Source: Flavobacteriaceae bacterium (GTDB lineage Bacteria > Bacteroidota > Bacteroidia > Flavobacteriales > Flavobacteriaceae). From it: 64,000 nt of DNA. The position numbers and the translations under genes are program-made. Numbering within the stretch: position 1 is the first letter of the stretch; each line of letters begins with the position of its first letter. The stretch spans positions 33,146-97,145 of the forward strand of contig JBFKFP010000001.1 in assembly GCA_041618535.1 (NCBI GenBank). Direction: 5' to 3'. Below, one piece after another: positions 21,888-38,064 of the stretch. Below the pieces are notes generated by a model, which saw only the letters and a program-made list of their open reading frames with translations, was not told where the DNA came from and did not search any database.

Positions 21888-22637
21888 ATGAAAAAAATAT
21901 GCTTCCTCAGCCTTCTTGCATTCGGTACGATTCTTAATTCAGGTGCCCAAACAGATACGGTTGTCAGCAGTCATGAAAATGAATGGCAATTCGAAGTTAC
22001 TCCCTATGTCTGGATAGCAGGATTCAGGGCGGTGACCGATTTCAGGCAGGGACTTAGTACCCAGGTTGAAGCCGACTTTTCAAAAATCCGCGAAAAACTT
22101 GAGTTAACCGGTTCTTTGCATGCTGAAGTTTCAAATGGCCGATTCTTTTTTATGGGAGACCTGATCTATTTCAGATCAGATAAAGGTGGTTTCCTTGATA
22201 CTGAGCCCACACAAACCCGATTGTTCATAGATCAATGGGCAGCAGAACTAGGAGGAGGATACAATTTTGTGAATAATGATAATGCCTTCCTGGTAGACGG
22301 ACTCATCGGCTGGCGGAATTTTAATATCGACAGCAGGTTAACGATAGACAGCCAGGAGGAATTTGACCGAAAGCTTATTGCAAACGATTTATTCGTGGGA
22401 GCAAGAATGAAAATTTACCAAGACCGGTGGAGTTTCATTTTGAGAGGGGATATGGGAGGATTCGGATGGGGTTCTGATTTGAGCTGGCGAATCGATGCGC
22501 TTGGCGGCTACCAGTTCAGTGAGCTTTTTACATTTAAATTTGGGTTACAAGCCTTGAGCATCGATTACAGGAAAGATACTTACGGTCTGGAAATGCTAAC
22601 AACTGGCCTGACCTTTGGTGGTGAAATCAATTTTTGA
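21888..22637 (+). CDS. Putative outer-membrane beta-barrel protein, function unknown
   Basis: 249 aa with a signal peptide, alternating aromatic/hydrophobic strands and a C-terminal ..FGGEINF. Confidence 0.5.
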   Translation: MKKICFLSLLAFGTILNSGAQTDTVVSSHENEWQFEVTPYVWIAGFRAVTDFRQGLSTQVEADFSKIREKLELTGSLHAEVSNGRFFFMGDLIYFRSDKGGFLDTEPTQTRLFIDQWAAELGGGYNFVNNDNAFLVDGLIGWRNFNIDSRLTIDSQEEFDRKLIANDLFVGARMKIYQDRWSFILRGDMGGFGWGSDLSWRIDALGGYQFSELFTFKFGLQALSIDYRKDTYGLEMLTTGLTFGGEINF

Positions 22638-22684: not shown

Positions 22685-23767
22685 TCAGTCGTTAATAATT
22701 TTTTCCTGGTGATTGATAGACTCCTGGTGAATGGCCTTGAACATCCGAAGAACAAATTCTTCACTAAGGTTTTTCTCTTCACCCTCAAGGATCATCTTCC
22801 CGAGGATTTCATTCCACCGTTTGGTTTGCAGAACCGCCACGTTGTACTCTTTTTTCAAATTTCCTATATCGTCTGCAACAGTCATGCGTTTCCCCAGCAT
22901 CTCGATTAGCTGGTGATCAATAACATCGATCTTGGTTCTAAGCGTATTGATCCTGTTGTTGAATTCGGCTTCATCACCCGATTCTTTTCTTACCCTTAAA
23001 TCCTCCATATATTGAATCATTGATTCAGGGGTGATCTGCTGTGCCGCATCGCTCCAGGCATTATCCGGATCATGATGGGTTTCAACCATCAAACCATCAT
23101 AATTCAGGTCAAGAGCGGTTTGGCAGAGATCAAAAATAATATCTCTCTTCCCGGCAATATGCGAGGGATCAAGCAATAAAGGAAGATCGGGGAATCGATT
23201 CTGAAGGTCGATCGCCAACTGCCACTCCGGGTTGTTCCTGTAGCGCGTTTTCTCGTAGGTTGAGAAACCACGGTGGATAACCCCTATATTCTTGATATCG
23301 GCCTTATAAATTCGCTCAACAGCTCCAAGCCACAATGAAAGGTCAGGATTCACCGGATTCTTGATCAGGACCGGCTTATCGGTACCTCTCAGGGCATCGG
23401 CTATTTCCTGGACAATAAACGGACTAACAGTAGTTCTCGCCCCTATCCAGAAAATGTCCACATCGTGTTGCATGGCCAGGTCAACGTGATTCGCATTGGC
23501 AACCTCGGTTGTTATCAGCAACCCGGTTTCCTCTTTTGCACGTTGTAACCATTTCAATCCAAGGGCTCCAACACCTTCAAAATTACCCGGGCGCGTCCTG
23601 GGTTTCCATATTCCCGCACGAAAAACGGTCGCATCGCTATCCTTGAGCTTGTGGGCTATGGTCAGCACCTGTTCTTCTGTTTCAGCACTACACGGACCGG
23701 CGATCACCAACGGATGGGAAAGTCCCATGCCGTCGAGCCAATTTCGGAGTTCTTTCTTATTTTCCAT
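22685..23767 (-). CDS. Bifunctional 3-deoxy-7-phosphoheptulonate (DAHP) synthase type I-beta / chorismate mutase
   Basis: 360 aa. The N-terminal about 265 aa is a KDO8P/DAHP synthase-like barrel (IAGPCS..E, KPRT, DPSH). The C-terminal about 90 aa is an AroQ-type chorismate mutase helix bundle (R..ID.ID..L..LL..R). Confidence 0.85.
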   Translation of the reverse strand: MENKKELRNWLDGMGLSHPLVIAGPCSAETEEQVLTIAHKLKDSDATVFRAGIWKPRTRPGNFEGVGALGLKWLQRAKEETGLLITTEVANANHVDLAMQHDVDIFWIGARTTVSPFIVQEIADALRGTDKPVLIKNPVNPDLSLWLGAVERIYKADIKNIGVIHRGFSTYEKTRYRNNPEWQLAIDLQNRFPDLPLLLDPSHIAGKRDIIFDLCQTALDLNYDGLMVETHHDPDNAWSDAAQQITPESMIQYMEDLRVRKESGDEAEFNNRINTLRTKIDVIDHQLIEMLGKRMTVADDIGNLKKEYNVAVLQTKRWNEILGKMILEGEEKNLSEEFVLRMFKAIHQESINHQEKIIND

Positions 23768-23772
23768 AACAA

Positions 23773-24627
23773 CTATTCTTCTATTCCTTTTAAAATCTGT
23801 TTTATATAATTTGTGTTAGCCATTTCTTCATAAATTCTTTCGAATTCCCCGGCCTCCATCAGTTTCTTGAAATTTTCAAGATTGCAAATGTACTCATTTA
23901 AAGTCTCAATTACATTGGTTTTATTCTGCCTGAAAATCGGGGTCCACATATCGGGTGAACTTTTCGCCAGTCTAACTGTGCTTTCGAAACCGCTTCCTGC
24001 CATGTCAAAAATGTCGCGTTCATTCTTTTCTTTTTCGATCACAGTCTTTCCAAGCATGAAGGAGCTGATATGTGACAAATGGGAAACGTAAGCGATATGT
24101 TTATCGTGGGCTTTGGGTTTCATATATCGTATACGCATTCCCATATGCTGAAAGACGTTCAAGGCTTTCTCCTGAAGCTTGAATGCGGTTTCCTCTACCT
24201 CACAAATGATATTGGTCTTACCAGCGAACAAGCCCCGAACCGCCGCTTGCGGACCACTGAATTCTGTTCCTGCAATAGGATGTGTAGCAAGGAAATTCCG
24301 TCTCTTGTGGTGTTCACTAACCACTTTGCATATATCTTCTTTGGTAGAGCCCACATCAAGCACAACTGCTTCATCCGGAATTCGATTTAAAATTTCAGGA
24401 AGAAACTCTACAGCTGCATCAACCGGTATGGCCAGTATGACAAACTCAGCGTTGGCCAGGTCTTCAATTTCAAATTGTTTGTCGATGATTCCGAGGTCGA
24501 GGGCTTGTTTGACATGATCGGGTTTTGAATCGATCCCATATACCCTGAGTTCGGGATACAAAGCCTTTATATCCAGGGCCATGCTTCCTCCAATCAATCC
24601 AACTCCTATGACATGCAAGCTATTCAT
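23773..24627 (-). CDS. tyrA: Prephenate (or arogenate) dehydrogenase
   Basis: 284 aa with an N-terminal Rossmann motif (VIGVGLIGGS) and the HPIAG motif. Lies in the aromatic operon. Confidence 0.85.
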   Translation of the reverse strand: MNSLHVIGVGLIGGSMALDIKALYPELRVYGIDSKPDHVKQALDLGIIDKQFEIEDLANAEFVILAIPVDAAVEFLPEILNRIPDEAVVLDVGSTKEDICKVVSEHHKRRNFLATHPIAGTEFSGPQAAVRGLFAGKTNIICEVEETAFKLQEKALNVFQHMGMRIRYMKPKAHDKHIAYVSHLSHISSFMLGKTVIEKEKNERDIFDMAGSGFESTVRLAKSSPDMWTPIFRQNKTNVIETLNEYICNLENFKKLMEAGEFERIYEEMANTNYIKQILKGIEE

Positions 24628-25770
24628 TTATTTGATCCTGTTTAAAGCTTCTTCAATCTGCTCTTCGGGAGCGCAGAGTGAAAAGCGGATAAAACCCTCT
24701 CCATTGCTTCCGAATATCGAACCCGGAGCGATGAAAATATGATGATTCTTCAGAATCAAATCTACATACTCCTCAGACTTGAAGTATTCAGGCAACTTAG
24801 CCCAGACAAACATTCCTGCAGAATGCCTGTCGAAGGTACATTTCATTTTTTCAGCCATTTGCCAGATCATGTTACGCCTTTTCTCATATACGCTGTTCAG
24901 ACTACTATACCACACTTTCGAGCACTGCAATGCTTCAATTGCACCCTTCTGAACACCATAAAACATTCCGGAATCCATATTGCTCTTTACCTGCAAGACA
25001 TTCCTGATATGATCCTCATTACCCACAACCATTCCTACACGCCATCCTGCCATATTGAAGGTCTTACTGAGGGAATTTAACTCTATGCAGCTTTCCTTGG
25101 CCCGATTCACTTTAAGCAGGCTCCTTGGAGAATCGGTTAAAAGGAAACTATATGGATTATCATTGACAAGAAGAATATCATTGTGCTTCGCAAAAGCCAC
25201 CAACTCTGTCAGTGTTTTATAATCGGCCTGGGCGCCTGTTGGCATATGGGGATAGTTGATCCACATCAACTTGACCCGGGAAAGATCGGACTGCTGCAGG
25301 GCCATAATATCGGGCAGCCAATTGTTATCCTGGTTCAGGTCATAATATACCGGGGTTGCTCCCAATAATTTAGTTACCGCGCTGTAGGTGGGGTAACCCG
25401 GGTTAGGAACAAGGGCCTGATCACCAGGATTCAGATAAGCCATCGAAATGTGCATGATGCCCTCCTTACTTCCCATCAATGGGAGGATTTCGGTATTCGC
25501 ACTAAGGTTTACCCCATAATGCTCCTTGTAAAATCCTGCCATGGCGGCACGTAATTCAGGTAATCCCTGGTAGCTCTGGTAACGATGGGCATTATCATGG
25601 TCGAGGCTGGACTCAAGAGCCATAATCACCCGCTGTGGCGGTTGAAGATCTGGGCTGCCAATCCCCAGGTTGACCACAGGAATCCCGTTCGCCATCATGA
25701 GGTTGATCTCTCTCATCTTTCTGGAGAAGTAATATTCCTGAACACTTTTTAACCGATCTGAGGGAATCAT
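24628..25770 (-). CDS. Class I/II PLP aminotransferase (aromatic / prephenate aminotransferase candidate)
   Basis: 380 aa with the PLP-Lys motif SLSKTF and NPGYPTY. Embedded between pheA and tyrA with a 4-nt overlap to pheA. Confidence 0.75.
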   Translation of the reverse strand: MIPSDRLKSVQEYYFSRKMREINLMMANGIPVVNLGIGSPDLQPPQRVIMALESSLDHDNAHRYQSYQGLPELRAAMAGFYKEHYGVNLSANTEILPLMGSKEGIMHISMAYLNPGDQALVPNPGYPTYSAVTKLLGATPVYYDLNQDNNWLPDIMALQQSDLSRVKLMWINYPHMPTGAQADYKTLTELVAFAKHNDILLVNDNPYSFLLTDSPRSLLKVNRAKESCIELNSLSKTFNMAGWRVGMVVGNEDHIRNVLQVKSNMDSGMFYGVQKGAIEALQCSKVWYSSLNSVYEKRRNMIWQMAEKMKCTFDRHSAGMFVWAKLPEYFKSEEYVDLILKNHHIFIAPGSIFGSNGEGFIRFSLCAPEEQIEEALNRIK

Positions 25771-26597
25771 AATAACTTCGCATTTTTATATTCTCCAAGC
25801 ACTTTGAAATGCTCGGCCATAATGTTTAATAGTGACTTGGCCTTTTTGTGATCCTCATAGGAATCAAAGGTCACATCTACAAAAAAGGCATATTTCCACG
25901 GGGTTTCAATTTTCGGCAGGGATTGTATCTTCGTTAAATTAAGCTTACAATCACTCATCACATTCAATACTGTTGCCAGGCTGCCCCGTTTATGGTCTAA
26001 CTCGAATTTAAGTGAGGCTTTATCGATTTCCGATTCAGGGATTTCATGATTCTCCCTTTTTACAATTACAAATCGCGTTTCATTATGCCTGATGGTCTGG
26101 ATGCTTCTCGCCAAAATATCCAGTTCAAAAAGCTTTGCAGCCAAGTCACTTCCTATTGCTGCAACTCCACTTTTATTCGTATTTCTGATCCTCATGGCCA
26201 CCTCTGCGGTATCCTTGTCCTCCACCAGTTTTATATGAGGATATTGCCTGAAAAACTCCTTGCACTGGAGCAAGGCCATGGGATGCGAATACACTTCCCT
26301 GATATCTTCAATCGACTGGCCGGGAAGCGCCATGAGGTTATGCTGGATATCAAGGTAATATTCACCAACCACGTATAGATGATGCTGGTCGATAAGGGCG
26401 TAATTCGGAATTATGGACCCGACGATAGAATTTTCAATTGCCATAATCACAGCGTCTGTGTCATTCCCAATCAAACTCTCAACCGCGCGGTCAAAAGTTA
26501 AACACTCCAGAATGTCGACCTTGTCGTCAAAATAGTTTTTGGCGACTATATGATGGAATGATCCCTTAACTCCCTGTATGGCCACTTTCCTAATCAT
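25767..26597 (-). CDS. pheA: Prephenate dehydratase (PDT + ACT domains, no chorismate mutase domain)
   Basis: About 276 aa with a PDT domain (VAIQGVKGSFH), the TRF motif (ETRFVIV) and an ACT domain. The ATG at 26597 is preferred over the TTG at 26603 given on the track. Confidence 0.85.
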   Translation of the reverse strand: MIRKVAIQGVKGSFHHIVAKNYFDDKVDILECLTFDRAVESLIGNDTDAVIMAIENSIVGSIIPNYALIDQHHLYVVGEYYLDIQHNLMALPGQSIEDIREVYSHPMALLQCKEFFRQYPHIKLVEDKDTAEVAMRIRNTNKSGVAAIGSDLAAKLFELDILARSIQTIRHNETRFVIVKRENHEIPESEIDKASLKFELDHKRGSLATVLNVMSDCKLNLTKIQSLPKIETPWKYAFFVDVTFDSYEDHKKAKSLLNIMAEHFKVLGEYKNAKLL

Positions 26598-26604
26598 AGG
26601 CAAT

Positions 26605-26632
26605 AAAAAAAAGTCCCGAAAGATCGAGACTT
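26605..26632 (-). terminator. Attenuator terminator immediately upstream of pheA
   Basis: Minus strand reads AAGUCUCGA-UCUU-UCGGGACUU (9 bp including one G-U) followed by U8. It ends 7 nt before the pheA ATG. Confidence 0.75.
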
Positions 26633-26675
26633 GATTTATATTTCATTTAAATATCACATAGCAAGCCTCTTTCCT

Positions 26676-26732
26676 TTAACTAAAAAAGAAATAAAACCAG
26701 CTGTAATATGCGAAATTTACTAGTGTTCTCAT
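26676..26732 (-). CDS. Leader peptide of the aromatic amino-acid operon (18 aa, MRTLVNFAYYSWFYFFFS)
   Basis: ATG..TAA mini-ORF absent from the ORF track. Nine of its last 12 codons are Phe (5), Tyr (3) or Trp (1). It lies 43 nt upstream of the terminator hairpin, and alternative pairings are visible (see finding). Confidence 0.65.
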   Translation of the reverse strand: MRTLVNFAYYSWFYFFFS

Positions 26733-26838
26733 TATTGTCTGGCTAAAGTAGTTAATTCTATGAAAAAACAAAATCCAATGATATTTTTTTTCTAAAACTG
26801 CTAAAGGAAATATGTATTTTTGGGGAAATTCAGCAAAA

Positions 26839-27741
26839 ATGTCTATACAGGTTGAGGGTATAACAAAGAATTACGGCAGTCAGAAGGCATTAGATGATGT
26901 TTCCTTTTCAATTGGAAAAAATGAAATCGTCGGCTTTCTCGGACCCAATGGAGCGGGGAAATCTACGATGATGAAAATATTGACCACCTATCTCAAAGCT
27001 GATTCCGGCCTGGCACGGGTGAATGATTTCGATGTCAATTCCGATCAAAAAAAGGTGCAGCAGAAAATAGGATACCTGCCCGAGCACAATCCTCTTTACC
27101 TGGATATGTACGTTCGTGAATATCTAGGGTTCAGCTGCGATATCTATGGTGTTGATAAATCACGGATCGAAGAGGTGTTAGGCCTGACCGGACTAAAAAG
27201 TGAGTCGCATAAAACCATTCAGCAACTGTCAAAAGGATATCGTCAGCGCGTGGGATTGGCTAATGCCTTGCTGCACGATCCTGAGGTCTTGATCCTGGAC
27301 GAGCCAACTACAGGGCTTGATCCCAACCAGATACTCGAGATCAGGGACCTTATAAGAAGTATTGGAAAATCGAAAACTGTTTTCCTGTCAACACATATCA
27401 TGCAAGAAGTGGAAGCGATGTGTGATCGAGTCATCATTATTAACAAAGGTGAGATTGTGGCTGATTCCAATCTGGCAGACCTCAAGGGTGACGAGGCACA
27501 GGTAATAGTAGTTGAGTTCGATTACAGGGTAGAAGAGCAGTTCCTGAAAAACCTGCCCAAAGCAAAAACTGTCAGAAATACCCACGATTTTATTTATGAG
27601 ATCACGTTTAAAGGGGATAAGGATATGCGCTCATCGGTCTTTGATTTTGCCCACGACAACAAATTAAAAATCCTTCAGCTTTACCAGAAAAATAAAAGCC
27701 TGGAAGAGCTTTTTATTCAACTTACCGGCGATCAATCCTGA
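26839..27741 (+). CDS. gldA: Gliding-motility-associated ABC transporter ATP-binding protein GldA
   Basis: Walker A GPNGAGKST, signature LSKGYRQR and Walker B LILDEP. The N-terminus MSIQVEGITKNYG.. closely resembles flavobacterial GldA as I remember it. The Met at 26839 is preferred over 26812. Confidence 0.6.
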   Translation: MSIQVEGITKNYGSQKALDDVSFSIGKNEIVGFLGPNGAGKSTMMKILTTYLKADSGLARVNDFDVNSDQKKVQQKIGYLPEHNPLYLDMYVREYLGFSCDIYGVDKSRIEEVLGLTGLKSESHKTIQQLSKGYRQRVGLANALLHDPEVLILDEPTTGLDPNQILEIRDLIRSIGKSKTVFLSTHIMQEVEAMCDRVIIINKGEIVADSNLADLKGDEAQVIVVEFDYRVEEQFLKNLPKAKTVRNTHDFIYEITFKGDKDMRSSVFDFAHDNKLKILQLYQKNKSLEELFIQLTGDQS

Positions 27742-37882: not shown

Positions 37883-37886
37883 TTGA

Positions 37887-37989
37887 GTTATCTATCCGGA
37901 AATTAATCCAGTAGAATTTAGCACCTTCTTTAAAGCTAAAGGGTTGCTAAGGCTTCACAGGGTCTATTCCCTCCACCTTTCTTGATAAC
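37887..37989 (-). promoter_or_regulatory. SAM-I (S-box) riboswitch aptamer
   Basis: The minus strand reads GUUAUCAAGAAAGGUGGAGGGAAUAGACCCUGUGAAGCCUUAGCAACC...AAGGUGCUAAAUUCUACUGG...CCGGAUAGAUAAC. This matches the S-box core (AUCAAGAG.GG.GGAGGGA..GGCCC.AUGAAGCC..GCAACC....GGUGCUAA.UCC....AGAU). P1 is GUUAUC/GAUAAC. Confidence 0.9.
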
Positions 37990-38064
37990 ATTTCAATAAG
38001 TTTTTGAACTTTCTGACCCCAATATTCGTAAAGATAATCCAGAAAAACAAATTTTATTTTTTAT

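Follow-up and report, generated by a model that had tools for sequence, protein, structure and literature searches.

The stretch analyzed here, 64,000 nucleotides (nt) of contig JBFKFP010000001.1 from a Flavobacteriaceae bacterium (hereafter "the window," whose own numbering is used throughout), carries on its minus strand a four-gene aromatic amino acid operon that starts with pheA. Between pheA and the divergent gene gldA lies a pheA leader: a short open reading frame (ORF) rich in codons for Phe, Tyr, and Trp, with an intrinsic terminator after it. This element is real, nonrandom, and conserved, and it most probably acts as a ribosome-mediated transcription attenuator. The features of the locus, from the promoter through the leader to the operon and its neighbor, are as follows.

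26743 to 26772, minus strand: predicted Bacteroidota-type promoter, with a −33 element TTTG (26772 to 26769), an 18-nt spacer, and a −7 box TACTTTAG (26750 to 26743)
26676 to 26732, minus strand: pheL-like leader ORF, MRTLVNFAYYSWFYFFFS plus stop codon; putative regulatory codons run from TAT at 26708 to TTT at 26682
26682 to 26698, minus strand: region 1, GGUUUUAUUUCUUUUUU, composed of Trp, Phe, and Tyr codons; predicted 5′ strand of the anti-antiterminator
26662 to 26669, minus strand: region 2, GAGGCUUG (consensus of the relatives, CGAGACUU); predicted 5′ strand of the antiterminator
26638 to 26654, minus strand: small A/U hairpin in the antiterminator loop, AUAUUU-aaaug-AAAUAU, as seen in folds
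26626 to 26633, minus strand: region 3, CAAGUCUC, whose partner is either region 2 (antiterminator) or region 4 (terminator)
26605 to 26632, minus strand: intrinsic terminator (putative attenuator), AAGUCUCGA-ucuu-UCGGGACUU, with a 9–base pair G+C-containing stem and a U8 run (26612 to 26605)
22685 to 26597, minus strand: putatively regulated operon of four genes, assigned by Pfam and NCBIfam scans
26597 to 25767, minus strand: pheA, prephenate dehydratase with an ACT domain
25770 to 24628, minus strand: class I/II aminotransferase
24627 to 23773, minus strand: tyrA, prephenate dehydrogenase
23767 to 22685, minus strand: DAHP synthase fused to a type II chorismate mutase
26842 to 27741, plus strand: gldA, gliding-motility ABC ATPase (TIGR03522 equivalog, 448.9 bits against a cutoff of 402.6)

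Direct reading of the minus strand gives an 18-codon ORF, MRTLVNFAYYSWFYFFFS, that begins with the ATG at 26732 to 26730 and ends with the TAA at 26678 to 26676. The codons after the ATG are AGA ACA CTA GTA AAT TTC GCA TAT TAC AGC TGG TTT TAT TTC TTT TTT AGT, and 9 of the 12 at the end of the ORF are aromatic (five Phe, three Tyr, and one Trp). Among ATG-started ORFs of 8 to 40 codons on both strands of the window, this is the sole case with at least 8 aromatic codons in 12. In first-order Markov randomizations of the 64-kb window, such ORFs are expected 0.01 times per window, and those with at least nine aromatic codons are expected 0 times. Another short ORF, MLTLIFTYFLFYYTPYKTTGCYSFS at position 456 of the plus strand, has 7 of 12 aromatic codons, which corresponds to the chance level (0.42 expected per window).

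The terminator hairpin, AAGTCTCGA-tctt-TCGGGACTT (26632 to 26611, minus strand), is the single terminator-like hairpin found between 26300 and 27100. It begins 43 nt past the leader stop codon, and 7 nt separate the end of its U run from the pheA ATG at 26597. The leader folds with an energy of −35 kcal/mol (z = −3.1), a value equaled by none of 200 shuffles. An earlier note on this DNA (the original prediction) had reported the mini-ORF, its aromatic content, the terminator, the spacings, and the downstream genes, and every one of them was recovered in place.

Conservation was assessed in two scans. The first was run with the PheA protein on one genome per species and yielded 80 Flavobacteriaceae loci with 68 to 86% PheA identity, from genera that include Winogradskyella, Olleya, Gelidibacter, Lacinutrix, Hanstruepera, Mangrovimonas, and Zhouia; two of these loci were left out because the upstream flank was too short. 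A homolog search with the window PheA reached only relatives of at least 76% identity. The second scan, of metagenome contigs, used a profile led by a distant PheA and yielded 80 further loci with 52 to 79% identity to that protein; the contigs carry no taxonomy, so these loci are counted here without a family assignment. Where the flank was sufficient, an F/Y/W-rich ORF followed by a hairpin and a U tract was present 5′ of pheA at 78 of 78 genome loci, and such an ORF with a terminator at 76 of 76 metagenome loci. The ORF and terminator design is thus found at 154 of 154 loci, with 152 distinct leaders. Look-ups of named species located the element in Flavobacterium luminosum, Cellulophaga, and Flagellimonas as well. 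The uncultured lineage L161 (4989-5001) has the pheA–aminotransferase–tyrA–DAHP synthase/chorismate mutase operon, and the leader and the terminator are absent from it; its pheA begins 11 nt after bshC and appears to be cotranscribed with accA-bshC. The L161 PheA (P0286) is 68% identical to P0135, which is in turn 42% identical to the window PheA. The element is therefore widespread, not universal.

In 151 of 151 leaders, an in-frame ATG is followed by an open frame through the aromatic run, while the other two frames are open in only 3 and 1 leaders (1 to 2%). Among 77 leaders, the final four codons of the run contain 38 variant cells, each of which remains a Phe or Tyr codon (TTT/TTC, TAT/TAC, or exchanges between F and Y). 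Changes from TTT to TAT (T to A) are among the commonest, and they keep the residue aromatic even though they would weaken or break RNA pairing. The mini-ORF and its aromatic codons are thus conserved in orthologous leaders, a point on which the original prediction had staked its case.

The same data bear on an alternative in which the terminator is controlled by a bound protein or ligand (riboswitch-, T-box-, or TRAP-like) and the ORF is an accident of a U-rich pairing strand. Region 1 does pair with the purine tract that follows the ORF, and the nucleotides of the run are very conserved, synonymous sites included (TTC occupies position −3 in 68 of 77 leaders), which implies a constraint at the RNA level. 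However, the open frame is confined to one register, the common TTT-to-TAT changes break the pairing yet stay aromatic, and the point where the aromatic run ends follows the beginning of region 2 to within a few nucleotides. No family of Rfam 15 reached threshold for the leader, either in a scan of 26300 to 27000 or in a scan of the whole window at gathering thresholds. Control by a bound factor is thus a very improbable explanation of the element.

Nor is it likely that the nascent peptide itself is the sensor, as a TnaC- or SecM-like arrest peptide for free aromatic amino acids or for another signal would be. In close genera, T-Y-Y-N-W-F-Y-F-F-F is strongly conserved at the amino acid level, and bulky aromatic stretches could plausibly contact the exit tunnel. 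In contrast, the wider set keeps the aromatic content only, not the order or the nonaromatic residues, and the N-terminal length varies. Peptides such as FWNGFYFYFFF, RFYFSNSFYFFF, and TWQAFFYFFYFY, as well as the further divergent MTKQYFWNGFYFYFFFKRGTGLL, MSNNRFYFSNSFYFFFSRSEDCAMVI, and MKNLNTWQAFFYFFYFYNMKRGFVGVI from the diverse set, are alike in aromatic richness alone, which fits codon sensing and not a specific arrest peptide or a functional micropeptide. The logic of arrest would also be inverted, because a free amino acid should turn a biosynthetic operon off, not on. We therefore give an arrest peptide very little weight.

At least two Tyr codons are present in 151 of 151 leaders, at least three Phe codons in 150 of 151, and at least one Trp codon in 111 of 151. 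Tyr codons are therefore as constant as Phe codons. The proposal that one peptide senses all three aromatic amino acids appears well founded, on codon content, for Phe and Tyr; it is weaker for Trp, which would be read from a single codon in those 111 leaders.

The position of the stop codon divides 77 leaders into three main classes, in which the stop lies two codons after the run (the short form; 19 of 77, the window included), ~7 codons after it, or ~10 codons after it. A single base, TAA versus AAA, separates the short form from the long ones (26678 to 26676 in the window; columns 72 to 74 of alignment A1), and both kinds coexist within single genera, for example, in Winogradskyella. In long-form leaders, the reading frame continues through region 2, that is, through the antiterminator strand.

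Downstream of the run, the sequence of close relatives reads AGC (TAA or AAA) AGG AAC GAG ACU U, in which CGAGACUU is the exact complement of the terminator 5′ arm AAGUCUCG. The close-relative set contained only three compensatory cells and was too little varied for covariation analysis, so the diverse metagenome set was needed; we used an unbiased MAFFT alignment of 86 diverse leaders (A3). Since RNAalifold, run on the close-relative alignment, predicted nothing but the terminator, the alternative helices were specified by hand. In A3, 87.7% of antiterminator cells are paired, seven of eight pairs are changed on both sides, and 94 cells are compensatory; its score was reached by 0 of 500 shuffles, and slid controls were paired in 24 to 45%. 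For the terminator, 97.5% of cells are paired, seven of nine pairs are changed on both sides, and 74 cells are compensatory; here, too, 0 of 500 shuffles reached the score (slid controls, 20 to 55%). Region 3 columns thus covary with two different partners, which is the signature of mutually exclusive helices.

Pairing energies agree in direction: the mean duplex energy of the post-run segment is −11.3 kcal/mol with its own terminator arm, −4.9 kcal/mol when shuffled, and −7.1 kcal/mol with arms of other types. Matched partners of regions 2 and 3 include GAGACU:AGUCUC, GGGACU:AGUCCC, GAGGCUUU:AAAGCCUC, GGGAUU:AAUCCC, AGGAUUG:CAAUCCU, and AGGACUUU:AAAGUCCU. Region 1 pairs with the purine tract and region 2, and this helix is paired in 90.9% of cells compared to 46 to 73% when slid. 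The full 1:2 hairpin is predicted at 26719 to 26648 and is present in the minimum free energy fold of the window. The backward pairing of the purine tract with the Phe-codon run proposed in the original prediction is therefore seen in minimum free energy folds and kept across leaders. Alignment of the upstream regions of relatives, the check suggested there, showed that the short F/Y/W ORF, the terminator, and the covarying alternative stems are all conserved.

In the window, pairing of GAGGCUUG (26669 to 26662) with CAAGUCUC (26633 to 26626) contributes −11.4 kcal/mol. In addition, the terminator loop UCUU and the next U (26620 to 26623) pair with AAGGA located after the leader stop (26672 to 26676); with this addition, the window antiterminator reaches −15.2 kcal/mol and is favored over the terminator at equilibrium, too. 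Other genera have terminator loops such as GAAA and UUA, which lack the pairing with AAGGA. Of the antiterminator drawn in the original prediction, the region 2:3 pairing therefore holds generally, while the extra pairing through UCUUUC exists in the window but is not conserved, because the loops are GAAA, UUA, and others elsewhere. The small A/U hairpin at 26638 to 26654 is predicted to draw regions 2 and 3 together; an equivalent A/U-rich hairpin is present in the folds of three other leaders (L012, L041, and L074), and the alignment is gappy at this place.

The geometry of the leaders matches the proposed switch. Region 2 starts 8 to 16 nt past the first base of the last aromatic codon across leaders; in the window, its start lies 14 nt past the first base of the last Phe codon; counted from the first base of the stop codon, the distance is 8 nt. 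We modeled the nascent transcript by folding it up to the terminator 5′ arm, with everything to 12 nt past the ribosomal A-site masked. In 151 leaders, the probability that region 3 is sequestered is 0.72 to 0.77 while the A-site lies within the run. At the last aromatic codon, it is still 0.71, but the next codon brings it down to 0.41 and the one after that to 0.10. In the 77 genome leaders, the corresponding values are 0.98 for a stalled ribosome and 0.05 for a ribosome at the stop codon. Mask folding thus predicts that a ribosome stalled anywhere up to the last aromatic codon causes antitermination and that one at least two codons further on allows termination. The full-leader equilibrium model was dropped in favor of the nascent-transcript model, since most orthologs stayed in the terminator (~0.9).

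Of 74 leaders, 62 have the −7 box TAC(A/T)TTAG 9 to 19 nt 5′ of their ATG, and 67 have TTG at the −33 position. In Flavobacterium psychrophilum, the mapped transcription start site sits 6 nt after the −7 box; by analogy, the window leader would start near 26737, with a 5′ untranslated region of only ~5 nt.

We propose that these parts work together as follows. Transcription would start from the Bacteroidota-type promoter a few bases 5′ of the short ORF, and a ribosome would read MRTLVNFAYYSWFYFFFS while RNA polymerase makes the next ~70 nt. A shortage of charged tRNA-Phe or tRNA-Tyr, and perhaps of tRNA-Trp, would stall the ribosome within Y-Y-S-W-F-Y-F-F-F, where it would cover region 1. Free region 2 (GAGGCUUG) could then capture newly made region 3 (CAAGUCUC), no terminator would form, and the operon would be transcribed. 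When aromatic amino acids are plentiful, the ribosome would reach the stop two codons past the last Phe and cover region 2, or, in many relatives, translate straight through it. Region 3 would join region 4, and transcription would end at the U8 run, 7 nt before pheA.

The core of the original prediction, that occupancy of the F/Y/W ORF chooses between the antiterminator and the terminator, is supported by the ubiquity of the element, its reading frame, the pattern of substitutions, covariation, and geometry. We estimate a probability of roughly 0.9 that the window element attenuates transcription through a translating ribosome, in response to the supply of Phe and Tyr and possibly of Trp.

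Several points weigh against this interpretation. For this organism, we infer the translation of the leader ORF, the transcription start site, the 3′ end near 26605, and the response to amino acids. The outcome of ribosome-mask folding depends on the assumed 12-nt downstream footprint. In full-length equilibrium folds with a stalled-ribosome mask, the terminator is favored in most orthologs (mean P of 0.90), while the window flips to the antiterminator, with a terminator P of 0.03. Equilibrium thus favors the terminator despite the stall, and the switch must therefore be kinetic; in Escherichia coli, the decision in trp attenuation is kinetic. In ribosome-free nascent transcripts, the antiterminator is still dominant at equilibrium in 53 of 77 leaders, with a weak 1:2 helix, so the arm of the model in which no translation means termination is not clearly supported. 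In the short form, which includes the window, a ribosome at the stop codon covers only part of region 2. The leader ORF also has no Shine-Dalgarno sequence and a predicted 5′ untranslated region of ~5 nt, and its initiation would therefore follow the Shine-Dalgarno–independent mode typical of the phylum.

The hairpin might instead act mainly by blocking pheA translation near the start codon. The window U tract does end 7 nt before the pheA ATG, and the hairpin ends no more than 30 nt from pheA in 89 of 151 leaders. However, the hairpin always comes with a U tract typical of intrinsic terminators, and many genera have it 40 to 517 nt 5′ of pheA, a distance at which it could not mask the start codon. 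Expression data from F. psychrophilum set the 5′ segment apart as its own transcription unit (PMC9723704). A block of translation as the main function is therefore hardly credible, although the hairpin may have a secondary translational effect besides termination. That the hairpin terminates the preceding gene was rejected because gldA is divergent and starts, rather than ends, there.

The intergenic region between gldA and pheA is roughly 245 nt long and must hold both promoters. In Flagellimonas (L164), a divergent ABC ATPase likewise lies 5′ of pheA. In four Gelidibacter loci (L020, L031, L034, and L035), the attenuator is separated from pheA by 156 to 517 nt of extra DNA, compared to 3 to 30 nt in most genera, and no convincing ORF was found in the 517-nt spacer of L031. 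At the other end of the window operon, a convergent ORF of 249 amino acids (21888 to 22637, plus strand) has no Pfam or NCBIfam match. The sole Rfam family above threshold in the window is a SAM-I riboswitch at 37885 to 37991 on the minus strand (RF00162; 85.2 bits, gathering score 44.4).

The pheA leader element has neither an annotation nor an Rfam entry, and the more than 150 aligned, covarying examples suffice to define a family and to improve the annotation of Flavobacteriaceae genomes. Its constant Phe and Tyr codons fit the content of the operon and predict multivalent control. The mechanism is a textbook one and the family has already been flagged in a transcriptome paper, so attenuation as such will not surprise a specialist. 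A bolder reading, which we hold tentatively and at slightly less than even odds, is that a single leader ORF is a truly multivalent sensor, with Phe, Tyr, and, through one Trp codon, a third input, that governs both the entry to the common pathway and the Phe and Tyr branches from an almost leaderless message without a Shine-Dalgarno sequence. Attenuation by leader peptides works only when a ribosome follows RNA polymerase closely. In a phylum whose translation starts without Shine-Dalgarno pairing, a conserved, well-defined attenuator would be a clean reporter of whether and how the two processes are coupled. If the multivalent reading is true, then the near-universal presence of the element in Flavobacteriaceae would be genetic evidence for tight coupling in Bacteroidota, and the single-base TAA/AAA difference would be a natural tuning knob for basal read-through.

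The closest known system is the pheA leader of the fish pathogen F. psychrophilum. The original prediction held that no aromatic-operon equivalent had been described, which is wrong: Guérin et al. 2021 (ISME Commun 1:33, PMC9723704; SI D9 and Table S7) predicted the orthologous leader as THC0290_N_0195. In that work, the transcription start site was mapped, expression of the 5′ segment was uncoupled from that of pheA, read-through occurred "under specific conditions," and operon transcription was maximal in minimal nutrient media (PMC9723704). The argument in SI D9 rests on tandem aromatic codons, conditional read-through, and coexpression, and according to the main text, further genera of the Flavobacteriaceae share the conserved element 5′ of pheA, for which Rfam gave no hit (PMC9723704). 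The description is a one-line prediction with expression profiles; no antiterminator, covariation, or phylogenetic survey is described in it (PMC9723704). New here are the survey of more than 150 leaders, the antiterminator and its covariation, the conserved distance of region 2 from the codon run, the short and long stop forms, and the constancy of the Tyr codons.

Both leaders lie between divergent gldA and pheA-aminotransferase, and both have a short F/Y/W ORF (MNTNNTFYSNNSFYFYWNIGRDCYMVI in F. psychrophilum) and an intrinsic terminator. As read from the published sequence, GGGAUUGU in the 3′ part of the F. psychrophilum ORF is complementary to ACAAUCCC at the terminator 5′ arm, so the region 2:3 design is shared with the window. 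The two differ in the switch arm (AAUCCC-type in F. psychrophilum, AGUCUC-type in the window), in the ORF (27 amino acids, reading through region 2, versus 18 amino acids, ending just before it), and in the 5′ untranslated region (20 nt versus a predicted ~5 nt). Intermediates such as L101, L162, and L097 grade between the two leader types, L101 and L162 being Flavobacterium-type. Given the shared gldA/pheA gene order and these graded intermediates (L101 and L162), the window element is an ortholog of the predicted, never dissected F. psychrophilum leader. Our literature search found no description of a Bacteroidota pheA leader besides that of Guérin et al. 2021 (PMC9723704). The motif that Weinberg 2010 calls "pheA" belongs to actinobacteria, and the Bacteroides thetaiotaomicron transcriptome paper mentions leader-like small ORFs only in general terms.

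E. coli pheL-pheA has the same overall plan, with a short ORF carrying a Phe run, alternative 1:2, 2:3, and 3:4 pairings, and an intrinsic terminator that closely precedes pheA. The Rfam model Phe_leader (RF01859) gave only a weak full-length alignment to the window leader (26.1 bits, E = 0.047), far below the gathering score of 55. The E. coli Phe_leader family is gammaproteobacterial, depends on a Shine-Dalgarno sequence, and controls pheA alone, while the window operon adds tyrA and the first common-pathway enzyme. E. coli pheL carries Phe codons only, whereas leaders of the window type hold Tyr codons as constantly as Phe codons. The resemblance is most likely convergent.

Within the phylum, the Bacteroid-trp motif (RF01692, Weinberg et al. 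2010) likewise consists of a leader ORF with cognate codons and then a terminator, and in F. psychrophilum it is found 5′ of trpE (PMC9723704). It serves the trp operon through Trp codons, while the window element precedes pheA, not trpE; a search of 26300 to 27000 gave no match to RF01692 even at E ≤ 10. E. coli also has multivalent leaders, with thrL sensing Thr and Ile and ilvL sensing Leu, Val, and Ile. The amino acids and the organisms differ, but the window leader resembles thrL and ilvL in that one ORF mixes codons in front of an operon with more than one end product, and its codon content suggests that it, too, is multivalent, for Phe and Tyr and perhaps for Trp.

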